Assembly (NCBI GenBank): GCA_964415365.1
Contig: CAYPYW010000004.1
Span: 23,658 to 87,657, forward strand
Reading direction: 5' to 3'
Length of the DNA stretch: 64,000 nucleotides
From: an uncultured Actinomycetota bacterium
Lineage (GTDB): Bacteria; Actinomycetota; Humimicrobiia; Humimicrobiales; Humimicrobiaceae
The translations under genes were made by a program, and so were the position numbers. Positions 979 to 43,238 of the stretch are shown here, piece after piece (positions within the stretch are counted from its first letter, which is position 1; every line of letters starts with the position of its first letter). The notes beneath the pieces were generated by a model. That model made no database searches and was not told where the DNA came from. It worked only from the letters and a program-made list of their open reading frames with translations.

Positions 979-1981
979 ATTATTTGATTACGAACTTCCT
1001 CAAAAATTCATAGCTCAAAGACCGCTTCCGCAAAGGGATGAATCTAAACTTTTAATACTTGAGAAACAAACCGGTAATATAAAGCATGATATTTTTTATA
1101 ATATTTACAGCTATTTTGATAATGGAGATGTTTTAGTAGTAAATGAGAGTAAAGTTACCCGCTGCAGGCTAAAGGGTAAAAAAGAGGGAACAGGAGCTAA
1201 TATTGAGTGCTTTGTTCTGAACAGATTAAAAGATAACCAGTATATGGTATTACTCAAACCTTCGAAACGAATTAAGCCTTTAGATAAGGTGACCATAGGT
1301 AAATATCATCTTACTGTTAAAACAAAATTGGATTATGGCGAAGCAATAGTGGAATTCAACTCACCTGCAGATGCTATTTTTAACGAATATGGCAGAATAC
1401 CGCTTCCTCCCTATATTAAATGCAGTGATATAGATGAGAGCTGTTATCAGACTATATATGCCAGTAGGGAAGGCTCTTCTGCTGCTCCTACTGCAGGACT
1501 CCATTTTTCAAGTGAATTAATAAGGAAATTGAAAGGCAAAGGTGTTATATTGGCAAAATTAGGTCTGGATATAGGTCTTGACACTTTCAGGCCTATCTCA
1601 GCAAGTGAAATAGAAGAACATGAAATGCACAGCGAGCATTATTATATCAGAGAATACGAAGCCAGAAAAATTAGGAGAGCAAAAGAACTGGGAAAAAGAA
1701 TCATTGCAGTAGGTACTACTACTGTTAGAGTCCTGGAAACCTTGATGTCCAAACATGGAAAGATAATAGGTGACGGCGGGATGACCGATATCTATATATA
1801 CCCAGGTTATGATTTCAGAGTAGTGGATTGGATGATTACTAATTTTCATCTGCCGAGATCAACTCTTCTGGTAATGGTATCTGCATTTGCGGGAAGAGAA
1901 AATATTTTAAATGCATATGAGAATGCAAAGCAAAATGGTTACAGATTTTATAGTTTTGGGGATTGCATGTTAATAAAATGA
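968..1981 (+). CDS. queA: S-adenosylmethionine:tRNA ribosyltransferase-isomerase QueA
   Basis: Typical N-terminus [16 protein letters not shown] (ATG at 968, in frame with the track ORF starting at 950), [35 protein letters not shown]. Confidence 0.97.
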
Positions 1982-1987
1982 AGCTGC

Positions 1988-8719: not shown

Positions 8720-9460
8720 ATGGTAAATCAAGAGAAAGTTAAAATTTGTCAGTTATGTAAAAAACACAAGAAAAAAAGTGAATTAATTCCTCTGGAATTA
8801 GTAGATTCTGCGTTGCTGGAATTTATTAAAGAGAAGTATCCCGAATGTTCCGACGAAGGGTATATATGCAGAACTGACCTTAATCAAGTAAGGTTAAAAT
8901 ATGTTGAAGAGGTTTTAAGGAAGGAAAAGGGAGAAATTACAGCACTTGAAGAAAAAGTATTTGACAGCATAAAGGAACAAGAAACGATTACCAGGAATGT
9001 AAATATTGATTTTGAGGAACAATTAACCTTTGGACAGAAACTGTCAGATAAACTTGCAAATTTTGGTGGTAGCTGGAAATTTATAATGATTTTCTTTGCA
9101 ATTATCATAATCTGGATGGTTGTGAATTCGGTAAGCCTTATCGGAAAAAGTTTTGACCCTTATCCTTATATACTTTTAAATTTAATACTTTCCTGCTTGG
9201 CTGCGGTGCAAGCGCCAATAATAATGATGAGTCAGAACAGGCAGGAAGCCAAGGACAGGCTAAGGTCACGGAATGATTATATTGTAAATTTGAAAGCTGA
9301 GCTCGAGATAAAAAGCTTAAATGAAAAGATAGAGAATTTACTGGTATATCAGTGGCAAAGGTTAATGGAAATACAAAAAATACAGACTGATATAATGAAT
9401 GAATTATCAGAAAAAAACAGCAGAAGAAATCCTCAGGATAGGCAAGGCAGTAAAAAATAA
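8720..9460 (+). CDS. DUF1003-family membrane protein
   Basis: TFGQKLSDKLANFGGSWKFI, FDPYPYILLNLILSCLAAVQAPIIMMSQNRQ, coiled-coil tail. RBS AGGAG 7 nt before ATG 8720 (the track starts at 8684). Confidence 0.85.
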   Translation: MVNQEKVKICQLCKKHKKKSELIPLELVDSALLEFIKEKYPECSDEGYICRTDLNQVRLKYVEEVLRKEKGEITALEEKVFDSIKEQETITRNVNIDFEEQLTFGQKLSDKLANFGGSWKFIMIFFAIIIIWMVVNSVSLIGKSFDPYPYILLNLILSCLAAVQAPIIMMSQNRQEAKDRLRSRNDYIVNLKAELEIKSLNEKIENLLVYQWQRLMEIQKIQTDIMNELSEKNSRRNPQDRQGSKK

Positions 9461-21484: not shown

Positions 21485-21672
21485 GGGTACTCTGTTTGTA
21501 TCGCAACTAAAGTTAAATTTTTGTGCCAACAAATTTACATTGGAAGCTCAAACTTTGGCTGTAGCGTAAATGCCCATTACATAGTGGGACTTATAAAACA
21601 GACAGGAGGGCATCCACCTGCTGAGCGCAGGGCGCAAAAAACTTCCTCTAGTTACGACTAAGCGGAGTATCC
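21485..21672 (+). ncRNA. ssrS: 6S RNA
   Basis: The ends pair into a long closing stem (GGGTACTCTGTT with AGCGGAGTATCC; TCGCAACTAAAG with CTCTAGTTACGA). The internal GGAGGGCATCCACCTGCTGAGCGCAGG motif resembles 6S RNA. About 188 nt, located just after aspS as in Firmicutes. Confidence 0.85.
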
Positions 21673-27730: not shown

Positions 27731-27759
27731 TTGAAAATATAAAAATTTTTTAGTATTAT
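27731..27759 (+). promoter_or_regulatory. Candidate sigma70-type promoter upstream of acyP-aroE-pilT-pilC-sigma
   Basis: TTGAAA-N17-TATTAT in the intergenic gap, 24 nt before the acyP ATG. Confidence 0.5.
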
Positions 27760-27783: not shown

Positions 27784-28068
27784 ATGGTTGAAAATATTAA
27801 AACTTACAGAGTGGTACTGTTGGGTAGGGTTCAAGGTGTAGGTTTCAGGTATTTCGTAGAGTCTATAGCCAATAAGTATGGCATGGGTGGCTATGTGAGA
27901 AACACTTTCGACCGCAAAGTAGAAGTTGTATGTCAGGGAGAAGAAGAAGATCTGAAGCAGTTTATAGATGAAGTGAAAAAAGGGCCTGCATTCTCTGTGG
28001 TAACAGATGTTAGAATAGAAGAAATCGAAGATAGCAAAGAATATAATATATTCGAGATCAAATTTTAG
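27784..28068 (+). CDS. acyP: Acylphosphatase
   Basis: GRVQGVGFR, GYVRN, VEVVCQG, GP. Confidence 0.93.
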   Translation: MVENIKTYRVVLLGRVQGVGFRYFVESIANKYGMGGYVRNTFDRKVEVVCQGEEEDLKQFIDEVKKGPAFSVVTDVRIEEIEDSKEYNIFEIKF

Positions 28069-28098
28069 TAGTAGCAATATAATAGTTAAATAATAGCA

Positions 28099-28989
28099 AT
28101 GGACATAGATGAAATGATTAGCTCCAGTACAAAAGTAATAGCGCTTGTTGGGAAGCCGGTAAAACATAGCCTATCCCCGAAGATTCAGAATTTTTTCATA
28201 AGTAGATACTCCAAAGACGCAGTTTATCTGGCATTTGAATTTAATCACGAAGATCTTGAAGAGGCTTTTAACGGAGCGAAAAAATTAGGTTTTATAGGAT
28301 TAAATGTAACTATGCCTTATAAGGAGGGAATATTTAAATTAGTCGATAAGCTGGATGGGACATCTTCAATTATAAAATCTGTAAATACAGTTAAATTTGA
28401 CCGGGAGCGAGGGGTTTCAAAAGGTTTTAATACCGATGTAGGAGGTTTTTTAAGATCACTGGATAAAAAAAAATTTAAATGGGCAGGTAGCCAGTGTCTG
28501 ATCATAGGAGCAGGTGGCGCTGCAAGGGGTGCTATTTATGGGGTACTTCAAAAGAAAGTTAAAAAGGTATTTGTATATAACAGAACAAGGAAGAAAATAA
28601 CCGATATCATAAGTGATTTCAAATCTGTAGGAAGTGAAAAAATAGAGGCTTTGAATAGTATCAATGACATAAATGGCGAAATGGATTATATTGATTTAAT
28701 TGTAAATTGCACTCCTGTGGGAATGGATACAGGGCCTCATAAAGATATGCTGCCTGTACCTGATAACTGGAGTCTTAAGGGGAAATTCATTTTTGATATG
28801 GTCTATAGACCAATAGAAACCAGATTTATAAAAAAAGCGAAAAAAGAAGGTGCAACAGTTATAAATGGCATAGATTTACTAATAAGTCAGGCAGCGCTAT
28901 CTTTTAAAATCTGGTTTGGTATATTGCCCGGGATAGATGATGTAAGAAGGGTGATTCTGAATAGTATAGAAAAAAACAAGATAACATAA
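28099..28989 (+). CDS. aroE: Shikimate dehydrogenase
   Basis: HSLSP, GLNVTMPYK, SVNTV, NTDVGG, GAGGAARG, YNRT, NCTPVGM, DMVYRP. Confidence 0.95.
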   Translation: MDIDEMISSSTKVIALVGKPVKHSLSPKIQNFFISRYSKDAVYLAFEFNHEDLEEAFNGAKKLGFIGLNVTMPYKEGIFKLVDKLDGTSSIIKSVNTVKFDRERGVSKGFNTDVGGFLRSLDKKKFKWAGSQCLIIGAGGAARGAIYGVLQKKVKKVFVYNRTRKKITDIISDFKSVGSEKIEALNSINDINGEMDYIDLIVNCTPVGMDTGPHKDMLPVPDNWSLKGKFIFDMVYRPIETRFIKKAKKEGATVINGIDLLISQAALSFKIWFGILPGIDDVRRVILNSIEKNKIT

Positions 28990-29025
28990 TAAAATAAGCA
29001 AATAATTAAACAGATAGGGAAAAAG

Positions 29026-30084
29026 ATGGATATTGATGATATTTTAATTGAGGCAGTTAAAAGTAATGCATCAGATGTGCATATCGTATGTGTTCTTCCT
29101 CCTGTTGTTAGAATCCATGGTGGCTTGGTAAAGTTAGAAAAATTTGGAGAAATCACTCCGGAAATATCAGAAAAAATGCTAACTAAGATATTAAATCAGG
29201 AACAAATGGAAAGGCTGGGGGAACAGCTGGCAGTTGATTTTTCATATACAATGCCCGGTTATGGAAGATTTAGATGCAGTTATTATTACCAGAGAAACAC
29301 CCTGGCGGCTGCTTTCAGATATATTTCAAGAGATATACTCAGTATTGAAGAGTTAAATTTACCGAAACAAATTGAAGAATTTGCCAGTTACCCCAGAGGT
29401 CTTGTTCTTGTAGCCGGACCTACCGGTTGTGGAAAATCAACTACTCTTGCTGCAATAATAGATATGATTAATAGAAGTAGGTCTGAAAATATCATAACTA
29501 TAGAAGATCCTATAGAATATTTATTCACACATAAAAAAAGTATCGTATCCCAGAGAGAGGTATTGGCAGACACACACTCATTCGGAGCTGCTCTTAAGTA
29601 CATTTTAAGAGAAGACCCGGATGTTATAATGGTAGGAGAAATGAGAGATCTGGAAACAATATCAAGTGCATTGACTGCAGCAGAAACCGGTCACCTGGTT
29701 TTTTCAACACTGCATACCCAGGATGCGCCGCAGACGATTGATAGAATTATAGATATTTTTCCGACTTATCAGCAAAAGCAGGTAAGAGCTCAATTAGCAG
29801 GAACTTTAAAAGCAGTTCTGGTACAGCAATTAATACCCAATAAAGATAAGAGCGGGAGAATACCTGCAACCGAATTAATGTTTGTGACTTCTGCAATAAG
29901 AAATATGATTAGGGAAGTGAAAGTACATCAGATTTACTCGGCAATCCAGGCCAGTGGCAGGAGAGGCATGATGACCATGGATATGTCACTGGTAAATCTT
30001 TATAAAGGGGATAAGATTACAGAGGAGCTTGCATTAGAGAAGGCTCATAATATAGATGAAGTAAAGAGAATGATTCATGGTTAA
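29026..30084 (+). CDS. pilT: Type IV pilus retraction ATPase PilT
   Basis: GPTGCGKSTT, TIEDPIEY, REDPDVIMVGEMRD, AAETGHLVFSTLHT, and the PilT-specific AIRNMIRE motif. No PilB N-terminal domains (352 aa). Confidence 0.93.
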   Translation: MDIDDILIEAVKSNASDVHIVCVLPPVVRIHGGLVKLEKFGEITPEISEKMLTKILNQEQMERLGEQLAVDFSYTMPGYGRFRCSYYYQRNTLAAAFRYISRDILSIEELNLPKQIEEFASYPRGLVLVAGPTGCGKSTTLAAIIDMINRSRSENIITIEDPIEYLFTHKKSIVSQREVLADTHSFGAALKYILREDPDVIMVGEMRDLETISSALTAAETGHLVFSTLHTQDAPQTIDRIIDIFPTYQQKQVRAQLAGTLKAVLVQQLIPNKDKSGRIPATELMFVTSAIRNMIREVKVHQIYSAIQASGRRGMMTMDMSLVNLYKGDKITEELALEKAHNIDEVKRMIHG

Positions 30085-30122
30085 GACTTACTTGAAAATA
30101 ATAAATATCGAGGTTAATTTTT

Positions 30123-31349
30123 ATGTCAGTATATAATTATACAGTCAGAGATTCAAAAGGCGAAGCGATAGAAGGTTCTATTGATGCTGATACCCAGGAT
30201 TTGGTCGTATCCAAATTAAAGGATATGGGTTATTTTATTATTAATATCGATAAACTTAAAGAAGAAAAAGTCAAACTTAAAAATAGAACAATAAGTTTTA
30301 GCATTTTTAACCGTGTCAGAATCAGAGATCTTGTTGTTTTTACCAGACAATTTGCAACTTTAATTTCTTCGGGGATGTCTCTGCTGGAATCTCTTATAGT
30401 TCTGGAGAGGCAAACTCCAAACCCAAAATTCAAGACTATAATTTCCGAGGTAAGGATGCATGTGGAATCGGGTCACTCTCTTTCGGAGTCAATGGAAAGA
30501 TATTCCAATGTTTTTAATAGATTGTATGTAAGTTTAATAAGAGCTGGTGAGGCAGGAGGAGTACTGGATAAAACCATGAACGACCTCGCTGATTTTCTGG
30601 AAAATGAAGAAGAAATTAAATTGAAGGTAAGAAATAAGACCGCCTATCCAAAGTTCGTCCTTGCCTTTGCAGTAATAATATCCCTGGTAATAATAATATT
30701 TCTGGTTCCCACTTTTCAAGGCATATATGATGAGTTAGGAGCAGAACTGCCAATGATTACTCAGGTAATAATATCTATAGGAAATCTGTTCAAGAAATTT
30801 TATTTTTACATTATTTTAGCCGTGGTAGTATTCGGCGGAAGATATCTATTTAGAAAATTTGTAAGAAGTCCCAGGGGGAGATATCTTATGGACAGACTGA
30901 AGTTAAATATTCCTAAATTCGGAGATCTTTTTAGAAAAATGTCTTTATCAAGATTTAGTAGACATTTTGGAATATTGCTGACTACCGGAGTTCCTATATT
31001 AAATTCCCTGGAGATTGCGAAAGGGGTTGCCGATAATATACTAATTGATAATGCGCTCGAGAAAATCAGAAAAGGAATAAGAGAAGGGGAGAATATTTCT
31101 GATCCGATGTCCAGTATGGAAGTGTTTCCTCCTATGATGGTACAGATGATGGCAGTTGGGGAGAAAACCGGTACACTTGATGAAATAGCTTCCAAGATTG
31201 CTGATTTTTACGAGAAGGAAGTGTCAAATACCATAGATATATTAGTCACCATACTGGAACCTGTAATGCTTTTATTTGTTGCTTTATTTATTGGTATAAT
31301 TGTAATCTCAATGTATCTTCCAATGTTTAATATATATCAGAATATGTAA
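30123..31349 (+). CDS. pilC: Type IV pilus inner-membrane platform protein PilC (GspF family)
   Basis: FTRQFATLISSG, AGEAGGVL, TAYP, VGEKTGTL, LEP..., MYLPMF. Confidence 0.94.
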   Translation: MSVYNYTVRDSKGEAIEGSIDADTQDLVVSKLKDMGYFIINIDKLKEEKVKLKNRTISFSIFNRVRIRDLVVFTRQFATLISSGMSLLESLIVLERQTPNPKFKTIISEVRMHVESGHSLSESMERYSNVFNRLYVSLIRAGEAGGVLDKTMNDLADFLENEEEIKLKVRNKTAYPKFVLAFAVIISLVIIIFLVPTFQGIYDELGAELPMITQVIISIGNLFKKFYFYIILAVVVFGGRYLFRKFVRSPRGRYLMDRLKLNIPKFGDLFRKMSLSRFSRHFGILLTTGVPILNSLEIAKGVADNILIDNALEKIRKGIREGENISDPMSSMEVFPPMMVQMMAVGEKTGTLDEIASKIADFYEKEVSNTIDILVTILEPVMLLFVALFIGIIVISMYLPMFNIYQNM

Positions 31350-31383
31350 TTTAAAACAGAAAGATATTTTTACTATTTTAATT

Positions 31384-32175
31384 ATGAATGAGCCAGAATA
31401 TAAAGACTACGATATAATAAAATTGAGAGGTCTGCCAGTAAAAGAGCTTATTGGAATTTATAAAAATTGCAATAGCTCAGCGATATTAAATTTAATAGTT
31501 AAAAAGACCGAGAGACTCGCCTATAAAATTGCTGGAGGATTCCGGAATAATGGATGGGAGAAAAAAGATATACAACAAGTTGCTTTTACCGGACTTGTGA
31601 TAGCAATAAACAGATTTAATCCTGAAAAGAACCACAAGTTTTCTACTTTTGCTGTTCATTATATAAAAGGTGAGATATTACATTTTATCAGAGACAGCAA
31701 GTTAGTAAAAATTCCCCGATGGTTATGGGGATTGAATAAATTATTCAGTAATTTTGTAAAGAATTTTGAAGCCAATAACAACAGATATCCCACAATAGAA
31801 GAAATATCAGCAGGCATTAATATTTCAATAGAAGGTATTAACGAGTTTTTGAAAGCAAGAGAGGCAGCTTTTTATAATTTCAGGCCAATCAGAGAAGATG
31901 GAAATGAAGACACAAGTGATGACCACAAATATGACAAAAGTTTGATTAAATCAAAGGAATGTAAGAGTTTTGACCTTGTGACAGAGGATAAAATTTTATT
32001 ATGGGATGCCATAGATAAACTTTGTAACTTGAATAAGAAAATATTGATTTTAAGCTATTTTTTAGGTTTCAGCCAGAAAGAGATAGGTGAAAAAATCGGA
32101 ATCTCACAGAGGTCTGTGTCCAGAAATTTAGAAGAGAGCATAAAAATATTAAAAGGTTACTACGTAAACGGTTAA
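31384..32175 (+). CDS. Group 3 alternative sigma factor, SigB/SigF-like
   Basis: Region 2: DIQQVAFTGLVIAINRFNP..KFSTFAVHYIKGEILHFIRD..VKIPRW. Region 3: PTIEEIS. Region 4 HTH: SQKEIGEKIGISQRSVSR. Confidence 0.88.
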   Translation: MNEPEYKDYDIIKLRGLPVKELIGIYKNCNSSAILNLIVKKTERLAYKIAGGFRNNGWEKKDIQQVAFTGLVIAINRFNPEKNHKFSTFAVHYIKGEILHFIRDSKLVKIPRWLWGLNKLFSNFVKNFEANNNRYPTIEEISAGINISIEGINEFLKAREAAFYNFRPIREDGNEDTSDDHKYDKSLIKSKECKSFDLVTEDKILLWDAIDKLCNLNKKILILSYFLGFSQKEIGEKIGISQRSVSRNLEESIKILKGYYVNG

Positions 32176-32398
32176 GAAATCTCCTGCAAAATATTTTTTT
32201 CTTTGCTGCCATATTAAATCCTAATAACTATTATAAATTGGTGATAATTGTTGAAATATAACTATTTATAATTTAAGTAGAAATGTATTTTAGCATTTTT
32301 AAGATATTTATAATTTATTATTGTAATTTATAATAAATTGTTATAAACTTACTTTGCAATATAAGTATTAATAATTAAAAAGAAAATAATAAATATAT

Positions 32399-32423
32399 GT
32401 CTAAGATTTTTAATTATGGGTAT
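32399..32423 (+). promoter_or_regulatory. SigB-type promoter candidate upstream of the major pilin
   Basis: GTCTAA (32399-404), N13, GGGTAT (32418-423). One mismatch to the Bacillus SigB consensus GTTTAA-N12-14-GGGTAT; 57 nt upstream of the pilin ATG. Confidence 0.55.
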
Positions 32424-32480
32424 AATAATATAATGTACAATAATAAAATTTAAATTTTTGTTAAATAAAGGAGGTAAAAG

Positions 32481-32882
32481 ATGAAGTGGCTATATAGAAA
32501 TCTATATAGAAAGGAAAAAGGTTTTACACTGGTAGAACTCATGGTAGTAATAATCATACTAGCAGTTCTGACAGGTATAGCCATTCCGAGTTACATGGCA
32601 CTACGAAACAGAGCCAGAACAGCTGCAGCACAGAGTGAGATGAAAAACATAGCTACTGCACTGGAAATATACCAGTCGGATCTAGAAGCTTACCCATTAA
32701 CAGCTGCTTATCCTGCTGCCTTGCAACCTGATTACATGGCTACAGTACCAGTCAATGATCCATGGGCTGTAGCATATGTTTATGCATCAGATGGTACGAC
32801 TTATACATTAACATGTTATGGTCCAGATGGGGCAGCTGCTGGAGGTGATGACATAGTAATAATAGATGGACAGCTGCAGTAA
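32481..32882 (+). CDS. pilA: Major type IV pilin (class III signal peptide; GspG-like C-terminus)
   Basis: Leader MKWLYRNLYRKEKG|FTLVELMVV with E5; DPW..Y.Y and GPDG...DDI motifs. Strong RBS AAGGAGGT, its own promoter candidate and a terminator. Confidence 0.88.
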   Translation: MKWLYRNLYRKEKGFTLVELMVVIIILAVLTGIAIPSYMALRNRARTAAAQSEMKNIATALEIYQSDLEAYPLTAAYPAALQPDYMATVPVNDPWAVAYVYASDGTTYTLTCYGPDGAAAGGDDIVIIDGQLQ

Positions 32883-32928
32883 GAAGAGTAAAAGTTATGT
32901 AGCGGGGTAATTATAGAATTATTAAGTC

Positions 32929-32963
32929 ATAATAAGGGGTAGTTAGAATCTACCCCTTATTAT
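32929..32963 (+). terminator. Intrinsic terminator hairpin after the pilin gene
   Basis: Perfect 14-bp inverted repeat ATAATAAGGGGTAG / CTACCCCTTATTAT with a 7-nt loop, 46 nt after the pilin stop, followed by A/T-rich sequence. Confidence 0.8.
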
Positions 32964-32983
32964 TATAATTAGTTTCTTATTTT

Positions 32984-33012
32984 TTGACTAATAGAAATAA
33001 CCGTGCTATTAT
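32984..33012 (+). promoter_or_regulatory. Sigma70-type promoter for pilD-pilMNOP-aroCKB
   Basis: TTGACT (32984-89), N17, TATTAT (33007-12) with an extended TG at 33004-05, just downstream of the pilin terminator. Confidence 0.65.
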
Positions 33013-33185
33013 TCAAAAATATAAATATTTATTTACACACATATATTATTAGAATAATAGAAATATATCTGTAATAAATATTTTTAGAATTATTATTCAA
33101 TTATAATAAATATAGCAATATAATATAGAAAAGATTTTAACAATTATAAAAGAATAAAAATAGCAGCAAATAAGTAACAATTAAA

Positions 33186-33947
33186 ATGGAAATAATTAAA
33201 GTAGCCTTTTATATAATATTTTTTATTTTCGGTTTGGCTGTAGGTAGCTTTTTAGGTGTTGTTGCATATAGGCTGCCCCGGAAATTGTCCATTGTAAAAC
33301 CGGCATCTTTTTGTGCTGATTGCAAGAGAAAAATTCCTTTCTACGATAATATTCCACTGCTGTCTTTTATTATACTTAAAGGAAGATGCCGGTATTGTAA
33401 AAATAAAATTCCAGTAACAAATCTTCTAATAGAGATAATAACCGGAATACTGTTCACAGCCAATTATATTCTATTTGGATTAACTGTAAGAACCCTTGTC
33501 GGTATAATCTTATGCAGCGTGCTTATTGTGATATCCTTTATTGATATTGAGTTTAAAATAATTCCCAATGTAATAGTGCTGCCATTTGCCCTGGTAGGAC
33601 TTATTACAAATATCGTATTTGATTTAAGGAACTGGTGGATGCCTTTGGCATTCAGTGTGGGCGCTTTTCTATTTATGCTTATAATTCATTTAATATACCC
33701 AAGAGGTATGGGAATGGGTGACATAAAATTGAGTCTGATGATAGGGGCATTTCTGGTAAAAAACGTAATAGCAGCCTTATTCCTTGGGTTTTTAGCCGGT
33801 TCAATATATGGTTTGTCTTTGCTTGCTTTAAAAGGAAGAAAATTGAAGCAGGCAATACCATTCGGGCCCTTTATATCCCTGGGAAGTGTTATATCTTTAT
33901 TTTGGGGTGATAATATCTTAAAATGGTATATAAATTTTCTTAGATAA
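33186..33947 (+). CDS. pilD: Prepilin peptidase PilD (A24 family)
   Basis: GSFL.VV.YRLP, Zn motifs CADC and CRYC, DIEFKIIPN, GMGDIKL, IPFGPFI. Confidence 0.93.
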   Translation: MEIIKVAFYIIFFIFGLAVGSFLGVVAYRLPRKLSIVKPASFCADCKRKIPFYDNIPLLSFIILKGRCRYCKNKIPVTNLLIEIITGILFTANYILFGLTVRTLVGIILCSVLIVISFIDIEFKIIPNVIVLPFALVGLITNIVFDLRNWWMPLAFSVGAFLFMLIIHLIYPRGMGMGDIKLSLMIGAFLVKNVIAALFLGFLAGSIYGLSLLALKGRKLKQAIPFGPFISLGSVISLFWGDNILKWYINFLR

Positions 33948-33953
33948 AAGAGA

Positions 33954-35129
33954 GTGATTAAGATGCTGACAGTCGGATTAAATTTAAGTTCCTACAGGAT
34001 ATATGTTGCTGAACTGTTAAAATCAGGAAAGAATCTTACTATAAGAAAAATGGTAAGGTCCGAAGTACCGTCTAATTCTATTGTAAGAGGAGAAATACAG
34101 GATTCAGAGCTTTTGGCCAAAAACTTAAAGGATATCTGGAAGAAATATAAGATTTCCGATAGAAAAGTGTTTATTGGGATTTCCAACCAAAAGGTGATTG
34201 CAAAAGAAATAAAGATACCAGTTATAGAAGACGAAGAAATAAGCAATTCTATCAAATATCAGATCAATGATTTTATTCCCATACCTAAAAATAATATTAT
34301 TTATGATTATTATGTTGTGGAAAAAGGAGAAAACTTTTCAAAACTGATGCTTGTAGGTGCGATGAAGAGTATGATTGATGATGTAGTTAAAAGCTTTAAA
34401 AGCGCCGGGCTTATTGCCCAGGCAATTGATCTGAATTGTTTTTCTCTTTATAGAACTGTAGATTATATCTATAATATTGATAAAAATGCAAAAAATAAAA
34501 AATCAGGTACTTTTTGTGTAGTGAACCTTGGGTGTGAAATGTCCATTATTGAGATGATCCAGGACAATAACCTAAAATATCCAAGATTTACATCTACTTC
34601 TATAAAGAGTTTTATTGACGGAATTTATAAAGAAGTAAAAAAAGATAATAAGTATTGTGAGGAAACAATCTCTAAATTTGATTTTAAATCTTTACTCATT
34701 AAGAAGAGCGATAGTGGTGAGAAAACTAGAAAAGAAGAGAGTAAAGATCCGCCAGCTAAATCCGGGGAAAAAGAGGATAAAAAAATAGATAAGGATGATG
34801 CCAAAAGTACTGCCAGCACCGTGGACTTAGTTAAAGTTATGAAAGATACTGCTGATCATTTAGTAGGGGAGATTAAATTGTCAATAGAGCACTTTTTACA
34901 GGAGAATCCAAAATATAAAGTTGGTAAAATAATTTTAACCGGTGAATATATTAAAGATATTGATAAATATATAGAGCAGGAAGTAGGTTATAAGGTTGAG
35001 TTATTAAATATGGCCGATTATTTTTCATTAAAATACCTAAAAAGGAATCCGGAATATAAAGGCAAGGATTTAAATTATCTGCTGGATCCTCTGGCCATAG
35101 GTATGGCATTACGGGGTCTGAATAAATGA
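33954..35129 (+). CDS. pilM: Type IV pilus alignment protein PilM (degenerate nucleotide-binding motifs)
   Basis: Actin-like fold pattern (GEIQD..L, IPIP...IYDY, AGL...AIDL, ALGMALRG-like end); overlaps the start of pilN. Confidence 0.8.
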   Translation: MIKMLTVGLNLSSYRIYVAELLKSGKNLTIRKMVRSEVPSNSIVRGEIQDSELLAKNLKDIWKKYKISDRKVFIGISNQKVIAKEIKIPVIEDEEISNSIKYQINDFIPIPKNNIIYDYYVVEKGENFSKLMLVGAMKSMIDDVVKSFKSAGLIAQAIDLNCFSLYRTVDYIYNIDKNAKNKKSGTFCVVNLGCEMSIIEMIQDNNLKYPRFTSTSIKSFIDGIYKEVKKDNKYCEETISKFDFKSLLIKKSDSGEKTRKEESKDPPAKSGEKEDKKIDKDDAKSTASTVDLVKVMKDTADHLVGEIKLSIEHFLQENPKYKVGKIILTGEYIKDIDKYIEQEVGYKVELLNMADYFSLKYLKRNPEYKGKDLNYLLDPLAIGMALRGLNK

Positions 35130-35836
35130 AGACTATAAATCTTCTTCCTAAAGAAGAAAAAATAAGAGATATCAAGGGTATAGTATTCAATGTAATATTA
35201 GCACTACTGGTGATAGTGCTTGTTGTGTTAATTGTCCTTTCGGTATTTTTGTTTAATATTAATAACTATCTTACGCCAAAGTTGGATGATTATAGAAGGG
35301 TAAATATGCAGATTAATAATTATGTAACTAAATTAGAAACTTATAATGAGTTCAAGAAAAAAGTAAACGCCAAAGCTGAACTCATAGACTCTTTACAGAA
35401 AGAGGAGATATTATGGTCAGAAGTTCTGATTGATTTCGGAGAAAGGATACCTGGTGATGCCTATGTTAATTATATAGAGGGAAGCAGCGAGCCTTTTTAT
35501 AAATTTATTTCCACAACTCTGGAAGAAAACAATGATCAGGCAGAGATCAAAAAAATATTGTTTTTCACTATCGGGGGATATGCGGCTGATTATACTGATA
35601 TAACAAAATTGATTGTGGAGATAAGGAATATGCCAGACATTGGTGAGGTGTGGATAAATAATATCAGCAAGAGTTACATTACGGAACCAAATATAGAGGC
35701 ACTATCCTTTAACATAAGTGCATATCTGGATATAGAGCCTTATCTGGAAGAAATGAAGGCAGAGAAGGGAACACAAACAGAGAAAACATCAGAAGAAGAT
35801 GAATTGGATACGGAGTTACAATCATTAAGTAAATAG
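35126..35836 (+). CDS. pilN: PilN-like alignment protein
   Basis: N-terminal INLLP motif, one TM helix, coiled coil; follows pilM. Confidence 0.82.
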   Translation: MKTINLLPKEEKIRDIKGIVFNVILALLVIVLVVLIVLSVFLFNINNYLTPKLDDYRRVNMQINNYVTKLETYNEFKKKVNAKAELIDSLQKEEILWSEVLIDFGERIPGDAYVNYIEGSSEPFYKFISTTLEENNDQAEIKKILFFTIGGYAADYTDITKLIVEIRNMPDIGEVWINNISKSYITEPNIEALSFNISAYLDIEPYLEEMKAEKGTQTEKTSEEDELDTELQSLSK

Positions 35837-35860
35837 TAAAGGTTATTTTTTTATTTAATT

Positions 35861-36403
35861 ATGAGCAGCAAAGTTAAGATAATTTTTATAGTAGCAATTT
35901 TTTTGATAAGTGTTTTACTGGTTGTTTTATTTATTATTCCTAATTTGTCTACCAGTATTAAAGCCAATACCGCTATAGAAAAAGAAAGGGAAAATAATAA
36001 AGCGTTTAATGAAACATTGAAGGAACTATTGTTGCTAAGGGACGAATACTATTCACTAAATGCTGAATACCAGAAATATTCCTTACAGCTTCCATCGGAA
36101 AATGATATAAGTGTTTTCACCAATGAAATTTATGATATCGCAAAGTATTCAGATGTGGCTATTTACTCAATTGATTATTCGGAAAAGTCTTCTGCCGCTG
36201 ACGAAAAGGAGAAAGAACCAGAAAGAACTATAATTGAGGCAGATCTAATACTCACGGGTTCCTATTATAATATAATTAACTTTATTAAAACAATGGAGAG
36301 AATGCCCAGGATAGTAACAATCGAAGATATAATAATACAATCTACAGAAAGCGAGTATGCGAATTTAAGTGCTTATATTACTGCTCAGTTATATTATGAG
36401 TAA
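35861..36403 (+). CDS. pilO: PilO-like alignment protein
   Basis: One N-terminal TM helix, coiled coil, QLPSE, GSYYNIINFI..MERMPRIVTI. Confidence 0.8.
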   Translation: MSSKVKIIFIVAIFLISVLLVVLFIIPNLSTSIKANTAIEKERENNKAFNETLKELLLLRDEYYSLNAEYQKYSLQLPSENDISVFTNEIYDIAKYSDVAIYSIDYSEKSSAADEKEKEPERTIIEADLILTGSYYNIINFIKTMERMPRIVTIEDIIIQSTESEYANLSAYITAQLYYE

Positions 36404-36936
36404 TGAATATGAATAATAATATTAATAATAAAAAGACAAAAAGACTAACAGTGGTTTTTATAACTGCCGTTGTTATATCTTGCCTGGCTATGATTCCTTA
36501 TATTTCCGGGTGTTCTGTCTATAATATTATAAAGGAATCATATACGGAAGAGGAAGAATCCCTGGAATTACCGGAAGTTGAGATAGATGAAGAGGAAATT
36601 AAAGAGATTGGTAAAAGTGATACAGATATAAAGAAGAGTTATGATATAGAAGGTGAGATCAATCTGGTGGATGAATCAATCAGGGATCCGTTCAGGCCAT
36701 TTTATATCCAGGATGAAGAAGAAGAGGAAAAGAATGTCCTCAAATTGGAGAGAATCTACAGTAAAGATGGTGTGGAGTATGCGGAGATAAATCTTAATGA
36801 TTATACTTATAAGCTAAAAGAGGAGGATCCTCTTTCGGACACTTATTTAGTTCAGGCAATAAATGTTAATTCGGTGGTGTTATTAAAAGGTGACGATATA
36901 TTAACGTTATTTATTGATGAAGTAAAATATGACTAA
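36403..36936 (+). CDS. PilP-like lipoprotein
   Basis: Signal peptide with lipobox ISGC, acidic linker, RDPFRPF motif, short beta-rich C-terminal domain; occupies the pilP position after pilO. Confidence 0.55.
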   Translation: MNMNNNINNKKTKRLTVVFITAVVISCLAMIPYISGCSVYNIIKESYTEEEESLELPEVEIDEEEIKEIGKSDTDIKKSYDIEGEINLVDESIRDPFRPFYIQDEEEEEKNVLKLERIYSKDGVEYAEINLNDYTYKLKEEDPLSDTYLVQAINVNSVVLLKGDDILTLFIDEVKYD

Positions 36937-36951
36937 AAAAGGATGTAATAT

Positions 36952-38118
36952 TTGAGATTTTTAACTGCCGGCGAATCTCATGGTAAAAGCCTTGTTGGAA
37001 TCATAGAGGACTATCCTTCTGGAGTTTTAATAGACGTGGATTTTTTAAACCGTGAACTTTCCAGGAGGCAGAGAGGTTTTGGCAGGGGGAAAAGAATGTC
37101 CATAGAGAAAGATAGCGTTGAGATAATTTCCGGTATTAGAAAGGGTAAAAGCATAGGTTCGCCAATTTCTTTTATTATTAAAAATAAAGACTGGAATAAT
37201 TGGAAAGAGATAATGGACATTAGTATTGCAACTCACAGTGATATGAATCCGGAAAAGAAATTATTGAACCCAAGACCGGGTCACGCGGATCTGCCAGGTT
37301 TTCTAAAATATAGACTGGATAATATCAGAGATGTAATAGAGAGAAGTAGTGCCAGGGAAACCGCAGTAAGAACCTGTATAGGTGGATTAGCTAAAATTGT
37401 ATTAAAAACACTGGGAATAAATATATTTAGTTATGTAAGTCAGATTGGGAAAGTAATTTTTAGTAAAAGTATAGAAATAAACGATAATACGCTAAAGGAA
37501 ATTGAAAAGTCCGAAGTGAGATGTCCGGATAAAACTATAAGCTCTCAAATGAAGGAAGAAATAACCAGGGTCAAAAAACTTGGGGATAGTGTAGGAGGCA
37601 AGTTTAGAGTCATTGCAACTGGAGTACCTCCTGGCCTGGGCTCATATAGCCAGTGGGATAGGAGAATTGATGGCAGGATAGCAAAATCGTTTATGAGTAT
37701 TCCTGCTATAAAGGCCGTTGAAATCGGTGATGGCTTTAGTGCGTCTGATAAAACCGGTACCAACTTTCATGACGAGATCTACTATAAGAATAGTATTGGA
37801 TTTTATAGAAAGACCAACAGGGCAGGGGGAATAGAAGGTGGGGTTACTAATGGAGAACCTATTGTAGTTGGGGCCTGGATGAAACCTATACCCACTACTG
37901 TCAAAGGTCTACATACTATAAATATTGAGACCAAAAAAAGTGAAACAAGCCTGAAAGAAAGGTCGGATGTGTGTGCAGTGCCCAGTGCGTCCATAATTGG
38001 CGAGGCAATGTTGTCTATAGAAGTTTTAAATTCTATTCAGGAAAAATTTGGAAGAGATAATATAGATGAAATTTTGGAAAATTATAATGGTTACAGAAAG
38101 TATCTTGAAAAAGTCTAG
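36952..38118 (+). CDS. aroC: Chorismate synthase
   Basis: TAGESHG, RRQRGFGRG.R, PRPGHAD, ERSSARETA, NRAGGIEGGVTNG, ERSDVCAVP. Confidence 0.97.
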   Translation: MRFLTAGESHGKSLVGIIEDYPSGVLIDVDFLNRELSRRQRGFGRGKRMSIEKDSVEIISGIRKGKSIGSPISFIIKNKDWNNWKEIMDISIATHSDMNPEKKLLNPRPGHADLPGFLKYRLDNIRDVIERSSARETAVRTCIGGLAKIVLKTLGINIFSYVSQIGKVIFSKSIEINDNTLKEIEKSEVRCPDKTISSQMKEEITRVKKLGDSVGGKFRVIATGVPPGLGSYSQWDRRIDGRIAKSFMSIPAIKAVEIGDGFSASDKTGTNFHDEIYYKNSIGFYRKTNRAGGIEGGVTNGEPIVVGAWMKPIPTTVKGLHTINIETKKSETSLKERSDVCAVPSASIIGEAMLSIEVLNSIQEKFGRDNIDEILENYNGYRKYLEKV

Positions 38119-38124
38119 CATTAT

Positions 38125-38643
38125 ATGGATTTTAAAAACATATCTCTTATAGGTTTTATGGGCTCTGGCAAGAGTACAATAGGGAAAATTCTGGCAAAAA
38201 AACTGGGGCTACTGTTTATTGACTTGGATAGAGTAATTGAATTAGATCAGGAAAAAGAAGTCAGTGATATTTTTAAAATACATGGCGAGGAACATTTTAG
38301 AGAATTAGAAACTAAGGTTATTAAAAAGATATATAAAAATAAAAATTGTGTTTTTGCCTGTGGGGGCGGTGTAGTAAAAAGAAAAGAAAATATGTGTATA
38401 ATCAGGAGGAATAGCGTAGTCGTATATTTGAAAATATCTGGCCAGAACGCATTCGAGCGTCTTAAAGATGTCAGAGATAGACCGCTTGTTGATGTGAAGA
38501 ATAAAAAAGAAACTATAGAAAAAATGATCAAAGAAAGAGATATTTTGTACAAGAAATATGCTCACATAACTATAGATAATGATAATAATGATCCTGAGCA
38601 AATTTCAGATCAGATATTGGCCAGGCTTAAATTACAAAAATAG
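38125..38643 (+). CDS. aroK: Shikimate kinase
   Basis: GFMGSGKST, DLD, GEEHFRELE, GGG, RPL. Confidence 0.95.
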   Translation: MDFKNISLIGFMGSGKSTIGKILAKKLGLLFIDLDRVIELDQEKEVSDIFKIHGEEHFRELETKVIKKIYKNKNCVFACGGGVVKRKENMCIIRRNSVVVYLKISGQNAFERLKDVRDRPLVDVKNKKETIEKMIKERDILYKKYAHITIDNDNNDPEQISDQILARLKLQK

Positions 38644-39759
38644 ATGAGAGTTATTACCGCTAAAACCAAACTTAGACATTATCCCATATATGTAAGCCCA
38701 GAGTTTACCGAATATTTTCCGTCACTGATTAGGAAGAATTTTAAGAATTCTGAAAAAATGATACTGGTGACGAACAATAAAGTATTTGGCATATATGAGA
38801 GCAAAATAAAAAATACCCTGGAAAAATGTCACTTGCCCTATGAAATAATAATTATTCAGGATGGTGAAGAATATAAAAGCTTGAAAAGCGCTGATCACAT
38901 ATTTAGTAAATTGGTTGATTTCAATGTGCATAGAAATGATATTATGATTGCATTTGGCGGCGGCGTGATAGGTGATCTGGCAGGATTTACAGCTTCGATT
39001 TTTCACAGAGGGATGAAGCTTATACACTGTCCAACGACTATTGTTGGCCAGGTTGACAGCAGCATGGGTGGGAAGGTTGCTATCAATTATAACGAAATAA
39101 AAAATGTGATCGGAAGTTTCTATCAACCTTATATGATAGTTATTGATCCAACCTTTAATTATACCCTGGAAGAAAAGCAAATCATTAACGGCCTAAGTGA
39201 GATTGTGAAATATGGACTGGTTTTTAACAAAAAAATATTAGATAAAATGTCGGAAAACGTGGAAGAAAAAAAAGACGATAGATTGTTCAGATTAATTAAA
39301 ACAGAAGTTTTTAAAGACATCATTTACAGTTGTTGTTGTATAAAAGAAAGAGTAGTTGAGAAAGATGAATTTGACGAGGGCTATAGAAACGTACTTAATT
39401 TTGGACATACCATAGGGCATTGTATAGAGAATGCGTTTAAATTAAGAGAAATTAACCACGGAGAAGCTATCAGCATTGGCATGGTAATTGCAATTGACAT
39501 TTCAATTTCAATGGGCCTGGTAAAAAAGGAAGTAAAAGATGAGGTTCTGGAGCTGTATAAAAAGTTGAAATTGCCTTACAGAATGCCAAAAACAGATGTA
39601 GAGAAAGTTATTGGTGCATTGAAGTATGATAAAAAGTTTAAGACAGCACAAAATAAGTTTGTACTGCTTAAGGGAATAAACAAGCCCATTTTCTTCTATA
39701 ATATAGAGGAAAGTGTAATCGTTGATAGTATTAAAAAAAGTATGTATAATTATATATAG
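38644..39759 (+). CDS. aroB: 3-dehydroquinate synthase
   Basis: DGEEYKS, GGGVIGDLAGF, PTT..QVDSSMGGKVAIN, LNFGHTIGH, HGEAISIGM, DKK. Confidence 0.96.
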   Translation: MRVITAKTKLRHYPIYVSPEFTEYFPSLIRKNFKNSEKMILVTNNKVFGIYESKIKNTLEKCHLPYEIIIIQDGEEYKSLKSADHIFSKLVDFNVHRNDIMIAFGGGVIGDLAGFTASIFHRGMKLIHCPTTIVGQVDSSMGGKVAINYNEIKNVIGSFYQPYMIVIDPTFNYTLEEKQIINGLSEIVKYGLVFNKKILDKMSENVEEKKDDRLFRLIKTEVFKDIIYSCCCIKERVVEKDEFDEGYRNVLNFGHTIGHCIENAFKLREINHGEAISIGMVIAIDISISMGLVKKEVKDEVLELYKKLKLPYRMPKTDVEKVIGALKYDKKFKTAQNKFVLLKGINKPIFFYNIEESVIVDSIKKSMYNYI

Positions 39760-39834
39760 ATATATATAAAAAAATATTAAATATATTATTAATTATATAA
39801 CGATTTTATATAAGCATTCATAAGGTTAATTAAA

Positions 39835-40269
39835 ATGAAGAAGATAATTATAATTAATGGTCCTAATTTAAATCTATTAGGACAAAGAGAAGAAAAAATT
39901 TACGGTAATAGAAGTTTTGAGGATTTAAAGAAAGAACTGGATGAGTTATCAAAGGGTAAAGCAGAACTTATATACTTCCAATCCAACCATGAAGGTGAAA
40001 TTATTGATAAAATTCAACAGTGTATCGGAAGCATTGATTTTATGATAATTAATCCCGGGGCATTTACTCACTACAGTTATGGAATACATGATGCTATAGT
40101 AGCCAGCAAAATTCCAACTATTGAAGTGCATATCTCAAATATTTACAGCAGAGAATACTGGAGATCAAAGTCGGTAGTTTCACCGGCGGTTAAGGGAGTA
40201 ATAAGTGGTCTCGGAATAGAAGTGTATAAAATAGCTATTCTATATATCCTTGATTACTATATAGATTAA
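39835..40269 (+). CDS. aroQ: Type II 3-dehydroquinate dehydratase
   Basis: NGPNLNLLGQRE..IYG, QSNHEGEIID, INPGAFTHYS, EVHISN. Confidence 0.96.
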   Translation: MKKIIIINGPNLNLLGQREEKIYGNRSFEDLKKELDELSKGKAELIYFQSNHEGEIIDKIQQCIGSIDFMIINPGAFTHYSYGIHDAIVASKIPTIEVHISNIYSREYWRSKSVVSPAVKGVISGLGIEVYKIAILYILDYYID

Positions 40270-41594: not shown

Positions 41595-43238
41595 ATGAAG
41601 AATAAGAAAAATAGAAAAAACACCAGAATTAAGAGCATGTGTGGAAATGTTACCATAATGGTATTAATAATAGGACTTGTAATAATAGTGGCTATTACTG
41701 CTTTAACGAAGTTTATGTTTGAGGATATTATTTTTGCAAAACTTGATGAAAGTAAGTTGAAAGCTCTAAATATCGCAGAGGCAGGGATATCCAATATGTT
41801 CTCAGAAATTGAAAAATTTCATAACGATGAAATATCAAGCCTGCCTTCTAATCCATATAGTGAAGATGTTTTAAACTCAGATAGTGAAATAATAGGAAGT
41901 TTTACTGTAGAGTATGAAGAAATTTATAACGACGATGGTAAACTCACTAATTATATAATAACTTCCGAAGGAACTGATGAATACAGCGGTCAAGCCAGAA
42001 AAATACAAGTAAATTTGGCAGTAAGCTTTTCGACCGAAGTTGATATCTTTGGTTATATTTATTCAAAGGGTGGCTTAGAGTTTTTTGACTTAATCAATGT
42101 ACCCTTCATAAATGGCCCTTTGTATGTAGGTGAGGATCTCGTTATAAGAGATCTTATTCAGCTTGGAGATGTTGTAGATAGCGATAAAATTTTAGTTGGC
42201 GGTAATATAGATCTGGAAGGCTATATAGATATAGGTGGACCAACAAGAATTAGATCACAGATGATTAATGTTGCCGGTGATATTGAAATGAGCGGTGCGC
42301 TGATTGGTTCAACACTTATAGAATCCAATTCTTCGGTAGTGACAATGGCATTAATAGTTATGGGTGACATAAGGATGAGCGGGAGTTCACGAATAGGAAG
42401 TTCCAGTAATCCTGTTGATTTATCCTGCCATGGATCAATTAGCACAGGAACAGGTTCTAATATATATTATAATTCACCTATAGGTGATGATATATTTGAT
42501 CCCCCAAAACTTAATGTTGGGGTTTATGTTAACAATTTTATAAGTCAGATACAGGAACCACCAAGTGATGTTCTCGTAATTGATGAAGATGATATGACTG
42601 ATGGTGTATTTGTTATAGATCCGGAGCTTATACCGGTTGAGCCGCCACCTAATGATGTATTCCTGAGAGCAAATGGAGATAATTATATAAGTTTCGAGCA
42701 AGGAGATGATGGAAGTTACTATCTGGAGGTTGAAGGAAATGTTCTGATAAATGGTGATATTAGAATTGGTGAAGAAATAGAAGATAGTAATCTTGATTCT
42801 CCGGACAACGATATTTATTATTCAGGTAAAGGAAAGTTAATTGCCACTGGAAATATTGATGCTTCCTGTGGACTGGTTCCCGATTCTGTCAGTGATTTCC
42901 CCACAAATAGTCTGCTTATTCTGATGCCCTTAGGAGATTTAGATATATCTGTAGATGATTACAACCATTATTTAGCGGATTATGAAGATCCCGATGTGTA
43001 TATTCTTGGTATAGCAGGAGGATCAGCAATACTGAGCAGCCATAATGCCGTTCTTGGTTCTTTAATATGCAATCAGATTAATGCCACAGATGAAGGTGGC
43101 TTTTTAGGTTATCTCCTCGGAAGCTTTGCAACTATAGGTTATCAGGAAAATCTGGGTGATAGTATTCCCGAGGATCTGCCAAAATTGGTATATGGAGGAG
43201 TAACCTTTTCAAAGCAGTGGGAAGAAGTTATTGACTAA
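41595..43238 (+). CDS. PilX/GspK-like large minor pilin (putative tip component)
   Basis: Basic leader ending in G, hydrophobic helix without E5, A..IAEAG motif, long acidic Gly/Asp/Ile-rich beta-repeat body. Confidence 0.65.
   Translation: MKNKKNRKNTRIKSMCGNVTIMVLIIGLVIIVAITALTKFMFEDIIFAKLDESKLKALNIAEAGISNMFSEIEKFHNDEISSLPSNPYSEDVLNSDSEIIGSFTVEYEEIYNDDGKLTNYIITSEGTDEYSGQARKIQVNLAVSFSTEVDIFGYIYSKGGLEFFDLINVPFINGPLYVGEDLVIRDLIQLGDVVDSDKILVGGNIDLEGYIDIGGPTRIRSQMINVAGDIEMSGALIGSTLIESNSSVVTMALIVMGDIRMSGSSRIGSSSNPVDLSCHGSISTGTGSNIYYNSPIGDDIFDPPKLNVGVYVNNFISQIQEPPSDVLVIDEDDMTDGVFVIDPELIPVEPPPNDVFLRANGDNYISFEQGDDGSYYLEVEGNVLINGDIRIGEEIEDSNLDSPDNDIYYSGKGKLIATGNIDASCGLVPDSVSDFPTNSLLILMPLGDLDISVDDYNHYLADYEDPDVYILGIAGGSAILSSHNAVLGSLICNQINATDEGGFLGYLLGSFATIGYQENLGDSIPEDLPKLVYGGVTFSKQWEEVID

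Follow-up and report, generated by a model that had tools for sequence, protein, structure and literature searches.

A predicted dedicated sigma factor–promoter pair for the major pilin in a type IV pilus locus of Humimicrobiaceae-like Actinomycetota

The 64-kb stretch of contig CAYPYW010000004.1 analyzed here (the window) carries a type IV pilus locus in which a gene for an alternative sigma factor is located between pilC, encoding the platform protein, and the gene of the major pilin. A comparison with related loci suggests that this sigma factor and a GTCTAA-N13-GGGTAT promoter ahead of the pilin gene form a dedicated pair in Humimicrobiaceae-like pilus loci, such that the locus-encoded sigma factor would drive transcription of the pilin gene; the probability of this reading is put at about 75%. 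The close homologues of the sigma factor and of PilC come from sources named Candidatus Humimicrobiaceae, Candidatus Hydromicrobium, and Actinomycetota, which marks the organism as an uncultured, deep-branching actinobacterium. With a G+C content of 34% the window is AT-rich, and almost all of its genes are on the plus strand. The features that define the proposed pair and its surroundings are:

30123-31349 (+), pilC, platform protein (Pfam T2SSF twice; PilC NCBIfam model, 394 bits)
31384-32175 (+), sigma gene, 263 amino acids (aa), starting 34 nucleotides (nt) after pilC (Pfam Sigma70_r2 and r4)
32399-32426 (+), predicted proximal pilin promoter (GTCTAA at 32399-32404, N13, GGGTAT at 32418-32423, overlapping TATAAT at 32421-32426)
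32431-32437 (+), TAATGTA block, probable transcription start region
32470-32474 (+), Shine-Dalgarno sequence GGAGG, 6 nt ahead of the pilin ATG (AAGGAGG is kept in alignments of relatives)
32481-32882 (+), major pilin gene, 133 aa (Pfam N_methyl and T2SSG; leader MKWLYRNLYRKEKG, then FTLVELM)
32929-32963 (+), intrinsic terminator hairpin (perfect 14-bp stem, 32929-32942 with 32950-32963; 7-nt loop; ΔG −20.1 kcal/mol)

A SigB/F/G-Type Sigma Gene between pilC and the Pilin Gene

An earlier reading of this DNA, made without database searches (the sequence-only reading), had placed a group-3 sigma gene between pilC and the pilin gene and had described a GTCTAA-N13-GGGTAT element 57 nt upstream of the pilin ATG, a strong ribosome-binding site, and a perfect 14-bp terminator. 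Open reading frames (ORFs) and Pfam domains confirm the gene at this position, and the three elements are all present. The terminator hairpin is far more stable than shuffled sequences (z = −5.4) and is preserved in relatives via compensatory changes.

The NCBIfam model that fits the sigma factor best is TIGR02980 (SigBFG, 148 bits), followed by PRK07408 (NF005644, SigF, 134.6 bits), although neither curated cut-off (234 and 261, respectively) is reached. The same two models rank first and second, well under their cut-offs, in all 22 members scanned (the window sigma and 21 relatives). The scores of the FliA_WhiG model (80 bits, cut-off 189.6) and the WhiG model (77 bits, cut-off 343) are lower still. 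Regions 2 and 4 are clear and region 3 is weak, and the layout agrees with that of SigB/F/G sigma factors, which have regions 2, 3, and 4 but no region 1.1 and a length of about 250 aa. Among solved structures, the best matches are Geobacillus SigF (1L0O_C, 76 bits) and a 256-aa sigma factor (8X6G_H, 73 bits), ahead of FliA (47 bits) and WhiG (40 bits). The alignments with 1L0O_C and 8X6G_H contain a common GEIxxF(I/L)RD in region 2.4, the region that had been singled out in the sequence-only reading. Membership of the FliA/WhiG group was excluded by the model scores and by the promoter type, which has neither a GCCGATAA box nor a 15-nt spacing.

The family is compact in the protein database, with 96 clusters at identities of at least 49% and then a gap to 38% or less. 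Together, the family-model, structure, and cluster results indicate that the sigma factor is an undescribed subfamily inside the SigB/F/G branch of group-3 sigma factors. The next homologues (30-38% identity) are tandem sigma factors with DUF6982, a clostridial sigG beside spoIIGA-sigE, and a Fusobacteriales sigma factor with a STAS protein; these sit in unrelated contexts, and a wider spread of the family in pilus loci was rejected on this basis. No STAS or RsbW/SpoIIAB-type proteins were found among the neighbors of the sigma gene, in 20 further window ORFs (Pfam), or among the called genes of related loci, in agreement with the earlier statement that anti-sigma and anti-anti-sigma genes are not adjacent.

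Conservation of the Locus and the Pilin Promoter

Synteny was compared in 24 loci from Actinomycetota metagenome-assembled genomes (MAGs), with one genome per species and sigma identities of 52-74%. The gene order acyP-aroE-pilT-pilC-sigma-pilin-pilD-pilMNO-orf177-aroC is kept in 24/24 loci as far as the contigs extend. For the motif, a stretch of 130 nt ahead of the pilin ATG was aligned from 19 loci and the window, with locus L151 added later; these 21 promoters were picked by protein similarity and are hence unbiased as to the motif. Every one of them contains (A)TGTCTAA-N13-GGGTATAAT, followed about 5 nt further on by TAATG. The spacer is always 13 nt and the distance to the pilin ATG ranges from 49 to 74 nt. 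On average, pairs of promoters are 96.5% identical over the 16 columns of the motif versus 65% over the other columns, and the information sits in G-19, C-17, GGG, and G+17, against a background of about 87% A+T. Variation is restricted to edge variants (GACTAA, GTCCAA, GTCTGA, GGATAT, and GGGTATACT). Thus synteny and motif, whose presence in relatives had been named as a test of the sequence-only reading, are both kept in every relative that has the sigma gene.

The motif matches the SigB-family consensus at 11 of 12 positions with canonical spacing (N13; consensus from PMC8346170) and has GGGTA in common with the pilA1 promoter of Synechocystis, which depends on SigF (PMC2532724). Within the window GTCTAA-N13-GGGTAT is present in a single copy, and shuffled sequences are expected to contain about 1.5 sites (up to one mismatch, spacer of 12-15 nt); the lone copy is therefore not significant and the weight of the argument comes from conservation. 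Numbered from the first G of GGG, the positions T+13, T+16, and G+17 downstream of the motif are kept in 18-21 of the 21 loci.

Two TATAAT hexamers had been named in the sequence-only reading as possible −10 elements that would speak against its proposal. The second one (32429-32434) was rejected as the true −10 because it is not kept as TAnnnT in relatives, where TAATG alone is conserved, a result in favor of the proposal. The first one (32421-32426), which overlaps GGGTAT, is retained in 20 of the 21 promoters (TATACT in L151) and counts against it. The position of the TAATGTA block would suit a start site with either GGGTAT or TATAAT as the −10 element.

Metagenome contigs were scanned for exact copies of TGTCTAA-N13-GGGTATAAT, with at least 121 matches. 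Among the matches listed, 29 fall between the sigma and pilin genes of loci of this type (27 with a pilin ORF in view) and 90 are on unrelated contigs without pilus-locus genes, 72 of the latter inside open frames of at least 60 codons. With the off-locus matches on unrelated contigs and mostly within ORFs, the exact-pattern scan was discarded as a route to regulon discovery. A few of the off-locus matches are intergenic and AT-rich; for example, two AT-rich contigs (L040, 9065-9093 on the minus strand, and L057) carry an exact match with an AT-rich spacer 88 nt upstream of an mnmG-like gene, which could have arisen by chance or could mark another target of a related sigma factor. Some members of the clade (the metagenome loci L039, L058, and L144) have about 44% G+C overall, yet their pilin promoter is near-identical and fully AT-rich (ATATGTCTAAAATAATTAATTATGGGTATAATTAATTAATG).

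Relatives without the Sigma Gene and Relatives with a Second Motif Copy

A search with PilC revealed three syntenic loci in which the pilin gene directly follows pilC and the sigma gene is absent: L153 (a Logan assembly), L154 (GCA_964423265.1), and L156 (GCA_051744345.1). The PilC proteins of these loci are 56-58% identical to that of the window, and the PilC of L155, a locus that does contain the sigma gene, is equally divergent (57.6%). In the three sigma-less loci GTCTAA-N12-14-GGGTAT was found neither upstream of the pilin gene with up to two mismatches nor anywhere in the locus with up to one; instead, they carry TTGACA-N16-TGT-TAAAT/CT just behind pilC and, nearer the pilin gene, TTGACT-N17-TATAAT (L154) or TGTTATAAT (L156). 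L155 contains the exact motif. Sigma gene and motif are therefore present or absent together. The 120 best PilC matches all fall inside the clade, so that the comparison has no outgroup and the change may be either a gain or a loss of the sigma gene.

A second copy of the motif is located ahead of the sigma gene itself in one sublineage. In L102 the pilC-sigma gap is 330 nt and the motif is found 114 nt before the sigma ATG and again before the pilin gene, the only sigma-upstream match among the metagenome matches listed. The same two-copy arrangement, with variant copies, occurs in the related lineage of L151 and L152 (GCA_004196255.1), where AGTCTAA...GGGTATAAT precedes the sigma gene and TGTCTAA...GGGTATACT the pilin gene; these variants narrow the shared core to GTCTAA-N13-GGGTAT. 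The distance from motif to sigma ATG is about 105-114 nt in the three loci. A scan of 450 nt upstream of the sigma gene with up to three mismatches found no motif in 41 of 42 loci, L102 being the exception in that scan, and autoregulation in the lineage of the window was ruled out by these motif-free upstream regions. In loci without a motif ahead of the sigma gene the pilC-sigma gap is 2-70 nt, a short distance that fits co-transcription of the sigma gene with pilT-pilC; the gap of only 2 nt in L019 and L024 suggests translational coupling.

In L155, toxin-antitoxin-like genes (CopG, BrnT, DUF433, and MazE) are inserted at 1483-3741 and 8875-9410, in the gap between a U32 peptidase gene and acyP and in the gap between the pilin gene and pilD; the sigma gene and its promoter are untouched.

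Housekeeping-Type Promoters in the Same Loci

Three further promoter elements of the housekeeping type bear on the expression of the locus:

27731-27759 (+), housekeeping (sigmaA/sigma70)-type promoter ahead of acyP-aroE-pilT-pilC-sigma (TTGAAA-N17-TATTAT; consensus scan)
32321-32349 (+), distal housekeeping-like promoter element, putative (TTGTAA at 32321-32326, N17, TAAACT at 32344-32349)
32984-33012 (+), housekeeping-type promoter with extended −10 for pilD-pilMNO-orf177-aroCKBQ (TTGACT-N14-TGc-TATTAT; scan)

A generic sigma70 consensus scan is uninformative alone in a window of this AT content (41 sites found vs. 34 expected). The two sigma70-type promoters that the sequence-only reading had assigned to the assembly genes were both found by the scan and hold up in relatives. 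The acyP promoter (TTGAAA/TTGTAA-N17-TATTAT/TATAAT) is clear in 11 of 13 related loci and degenerate in the two most divergent ones (L016 and L018). At pilD, a canonical −35 with an extended −10 (TTTTGACT-N14-TGn-TA(T/A)TAT) is found in 18 of 19 loci, L005 having a degenerate TTTAAG. The ordinary promoters of the clade thus have TTG at 17-nt spacing and no GGG, with TGn before the −10 at pilD and TAG at acyP. The pilin site has neither TTG at 17 nt nor TGn and keeps GTCTAA and GGG instead.

The distal element lies about 50 nt upstream of GTCTAA and is seen as (A/G)TTG(C/T/A)(A/C)A-N17-TATACT in about 14 of 20 loci. It is absent from six loci (L008, L009, L010, L017, L018, and L023), all of which retain the proximal motif. 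The element resembles the TTGACA-N16-TGT-TAAAYT promoter behind pilC in the sigma-less relatives and may represent the original promoter of the pilin gene.

A long AT-rich block (ATTATTATTCAATTATAATAAATATAGCAATATAATA) that is strongly conserved in most related loci lies within the approximately 170-nt pilD leader, at about 33080-33135 (+), after the pilD promoter and ahead of the ATG. It matches no Rfam family and might serve as a second promoter or as a regulatory site.

Alternative Readings of the Pilin Promoter

Several observations weigh against transcription of the pilin gene by the locus sigma factor. The TATAAT that overlaps GGGTAT is almost as invariant as GGG, so that the housekeeping sigma factor might use the site, and ATGTCT, at 18-nt spacing from this TATAAT, matches TTGACA at 3 of 6 positions. 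With the distal housekeeping-like promoter upstream, the pilin gene may not depend on the locus sigma factor alone. The score of the sigma factor is under every curated family cut-off, and SigB/SigF promoter specificity is therefore transferred to it by inference; the absence of a partner-switching anti-sigma module from the 64-kb scans is furthermore unusual for the SigB/F/G family. The three sigma-less PilC proteins form one subclade, so the co-occurrence of sigma gene and motif rests on a single gain or loss event. All organisms concerned are uncultured MAGs, and the scans for further sites covered the 64-kb window and, in each relative, about 14 kb.

The alternative that survives best, although it is considered unlikely, is that the pilin promoter is a housekeeping promoter using the TATAAT at 32421-32426, that GTCTAA and GGG form an activator or repressor site, and that the locus sigma factor has other targets or a general stress role. 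The near-invariance of TATAAT is as this would predict, the G at −14 belongs to an extended −10 element, the sigma-less relatives show that a pilin gene of this type can run on housekeeping promoters, and the share of each genome that was scanned for other sites is small. However, the housekeeping promoters of the same locus have TTGnnn at 17 nt, with TGn in addition at pilD, and the pilin site has neither, while its two half-sites are correctly spaced and fit the SigB-family consensus. The locus contains no conserved gene for a regulator. The match to the consensus, the loss of the motif along with the sigma gene, and the copy ahead of the sigma gene in one sublineage make a housekeeping promoter with a regulator site the less parsimonious explanation.

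Use of the site by both sigma factors, which would start at the same place so that the locus sigma factor boosts a constitutive promoter, is quite unlikely. GGGTAT and TATAAT do overlap and are both conserved, the predicted start region, TAATG, is compatible with either factor, and a further housekeeping-like promoter is located upstream, but the −35 region fits the housekeeping sigma factor poorly. The −10 elements of the Bacillus SigF type are longer than six bases, and the conserved AAT may merely be part of the locus sigma factor's own −10 preference. It is very improbable that the conserved block is a leader element (an RNA structure or a protein site) in a long 5′ untranslated region transcribed from the distal promoter at 32321-32349: the TTGnnA-N17-TAtACT element is conserved upstream in most loci, but RNAalifold found 0 pairs in 16 leaders, the single-sequence fold is no better than shuffles (z = +0.3), Rfam has no match at E ≤ 1, the six loci without the distal element retain the block, and two boxes at a fixed spacing are a promoter-like architecture. 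An RNA leader or riboswitch was excluded by the folding and Rfam results.

The Proposed Circuit

If the locus sigma factor drives the pilin gene, the locus would be expressed as follows. The housekeeping sigma factor would transcribe acyP-aroE-pilT-pilC together with the sigma gene and, separately, pilD-pilMNO-orf177 and the aro genes, as the conserved promoters ahead of both units suggest. The SigB/SigF/SigG-type sigma factor would then, with core RNA polymerase, transcribe the monocistronic pilin gene from GTCTAA-N13-GGGTAT, a step for which family consensus, conservation, and phyletic co-occurrence argue. Transcription of the pilin gene would probably begin in the conserved TAATG, about 10 nt downstream of GGGTAT, and the strong ribosome-binding site and the terminator would make the pilin gene a separate, highly expressed unit. 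The weaker housekeeping-type promoter 50 nt upstream may supply basal pilin expression; if it is active, the housekeeping sigma factor feeds the pilin gene both directly and via the locus sigma factor, and the circuit is therefore a coherent feed-forward loop. In the sublineage of L102, L151, and L152, the promoter copy at the sigma gene would add positive autoregulation.

The sequence-only reading had proposed a feed-forward switch. Its wiring, with the sigma factor driving the pilin gene, is supported by the comparative data, whereas the term switch is too strong, as no anti-sigma factor or input was found. A tentative extension, given slightly less than even odds, is that an orthogonal sigma factor without an anti-sigma factor and its promoter are a portable single-target module that solely serves to couple high pilin output to expression of the machinery, would be gained or lost as a unit, and is self-activating in one sublineage.

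Other Genes of the Locus and the Window

The remaining genes of the pilus locus are:

27784-28068 (+), acyP
28099-28989 (+), aroE
29026-30084 (+), pilT-family ATPase gene (TIGR01420 pilT_fam, 452 bits, above the cut-off of 319; Pfam T2SSE)
33186-36936 (+), pilD (33186-33947), pilM, pilN, pilO, and a conserved ORF for a membrane-anchored protein of 177 aa (Pfam Peptidase_A24, PilM_2, PilN (weak), and PilO)
after the 177-aa ORF (+), aroC, aroK, aroB, and aroQ
from 40281, minor pilin genes, the first one 11 nt after aroQ

The pilus genes are interleaved with genes of the shikimate pathway (27784-40269), with aroE ahead of pilT and aroC-aroK-aroB-aroQ behind pilO and orf177, an arrangement that is kept across the clade (L001-L024). 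The locus encodes a type IVa-like monoderm pilus set consisting of the pilin, PilD, PilC, PilM, PilN (weak), PilO, and a PilT-family ATPase. The pilin scores 74.5 bits against a GspG-type model, below the cut-off of 88.85. No PilB-type assembly ATPase or secretin gene was identified in the window by ORF layout and domain scans, in which about 20 ORFs were named by their N-terminal sequence only, and the PilT-family protein (352 aa) is the sole pilus ATPase there. Related loci, including L151 and L154, likewise showed no PilB-type gene in the 6-10 kb that flank the queried pilus gene on each side, so the assembly ATPase is located elsewhere or PilT doubles as the assembly ATPase.

Two membrane-anchored proteins of the region have no Pfam match: the 177-aa ORF (36403-36936, +), which follows pilO in all loci, and a 547-aa protein (41595-43238, +) behind the minor pilin genes. 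A full-length 6S RNA (SsrS) gene is located just upstream of alaS at 21486-21672 (+) (RF00013, 82.8 bits) and is the only Rfam family at gathering threshold in the window. Among the few minus-strand genes, about 28 kb from the pilus locus, is one for a PAS-PAS-HD_5 (HD-GYP-type) protein (1988-3832, −), a possible cyclic-nucleotide signaling enzyme. The segment 4156-8492 contains two paralogous DUF5698/DUF2179 membrane proteins in opposite orientation and, between them, a radical-SAM/SPASM protein and a fusion of a methyltransferase with a D-Ala-D-Ala-ligase-like domain.

Discussion

The proposed pair has counterparts in several known systems. In cyanobacteria, to our knowledge, the pilus cluster does not include sigF. 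The likeness to cyanobacterial SigF lies in a group-3 sigma factor acting on the major pilin gene, here as predicted from sequence, in GGGTA in the −10/−12 region, and in autoregulation, to which the predicted self-copy in the L102/L151 sublineage may be compared. The SigF of Synechocystis PCC 6803 drives pilA1 and autoregulates, and its pilA1 promoter has GGGTAAG at −15 to −9 and TAGGC at −32 in an AG-rich context (PMC2532724). The systems differ in the −35 element (TAGGC versus GTCTAA) and in the host, here an actinobacterium, and the score of the present sigma factor against the SigF model is under the cut-off.

The best-scoring family is that of Bacillus and Staphylococcus SigB and the Streptomyces homologues, and the motif is one base off its consensus: in B. 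subtilis SigB promoters follow GTTTAA-N12-14-GGG(A/T)A(A/T), and the promoters of nine Streptomyces SigB homologues hardly ever deviate from GGG or from A as the fifth base of the −10 (PMC8346170). Unlike in these SigB systems, no RsbW/RsbV-type genes are nearby and the apparent target is a single pilus gene and not a stress or differentiation regulon. The sporulation factors SigF and SigG of Firmicutes provide the closest structure (1L0O_C) and the closest homologues outside the clade, at about 32% identity (P0099, which adjoins spoIIGA-sigE), but the pilus locus has no sporulation context, no SpoIIAB/SpoIIAA, and another target.

Within the Actinomycetota, a switch of WhiG, RsiG, and cyclic di-GMP (c-di-GMP) acts on TAAA-N15-GCCGATAA promoters inside the pilus cluster of Rubrobacter, and FliA-like sigma factors drive pilus genes in Actinoplanes (PMC8325347); for several more actinobacterial families, control of pili by WhiG is predicted in a preprint from 2026 (PMC12871210). 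These systems share with the one proposed here the phylum, the use of a group-3 alternative sigma factor, and promoters within the pilus cluster. They differ in the sigma clade and in the promoter (GTCTAA-N13-GGGTAT here). WhiG is furthermore gated by the RsiG-c-di-GMP anti-sigma mechanism and controls several pil operons and c-di-GMP enzymes, and the papers do not place whiG in the pilus cluster (PMC8325347; PMC12871210). That a group-3 sigma factor drives pilus genes in a monoderm is thus already known, and the remark in the sequence-only reading that no monoderm type IV pilus locus wired in this way had been described was too strong in view of the WhiG/FliA-type sigma factors of Rubrobacter and Actinoplanes (PMC8325347, PMC12871210). 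What appears to be new is a pilus cluster that itself encodes, between pilC and the pilin gene, a SigB/F/G-branch sigma factor; a SigB-type promoter that seemingly serves only the pilin gene and, in one sublineage, also the sigma gene itself; and what looks like the gain or loss of sigma gene and promoter as a pair. Literature searches on the clade name and on sigma factors of pilus clusters yielded no account of such a locus.

Little is known of how type IV pili are regulated in monoderms. For an actinomycetotal class without any cultured member, the comparison of loci leads to the prediction of a whole circuit that is open to testing. The sigma factor (263 aa) and its promoter of about 45 bp are small and apparently self-contained, so the pair can be tested without growing the organism and, if it is specific, might find use as an orthogonal part for gene expression. 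The gain or loss of sigma gene and promoter in sister lineages would be a clean example of regulator-site co-evolution. Together with cyanobacterial SigF and the WhiG-type systems of Rubrobacter and Actinoplanes, the pair suggests a recurrent or ancient link between group-3 sigma factors and pilin genes. If the single-target module is real, no natural sigma regulon linked to a surface appendage would be smaller, and the module would be, after cyanobacterial SigF and actinobacterial WhiG, the third independent case within the Terrabacteria of a group-3 sigma factor capturing pilin expression.

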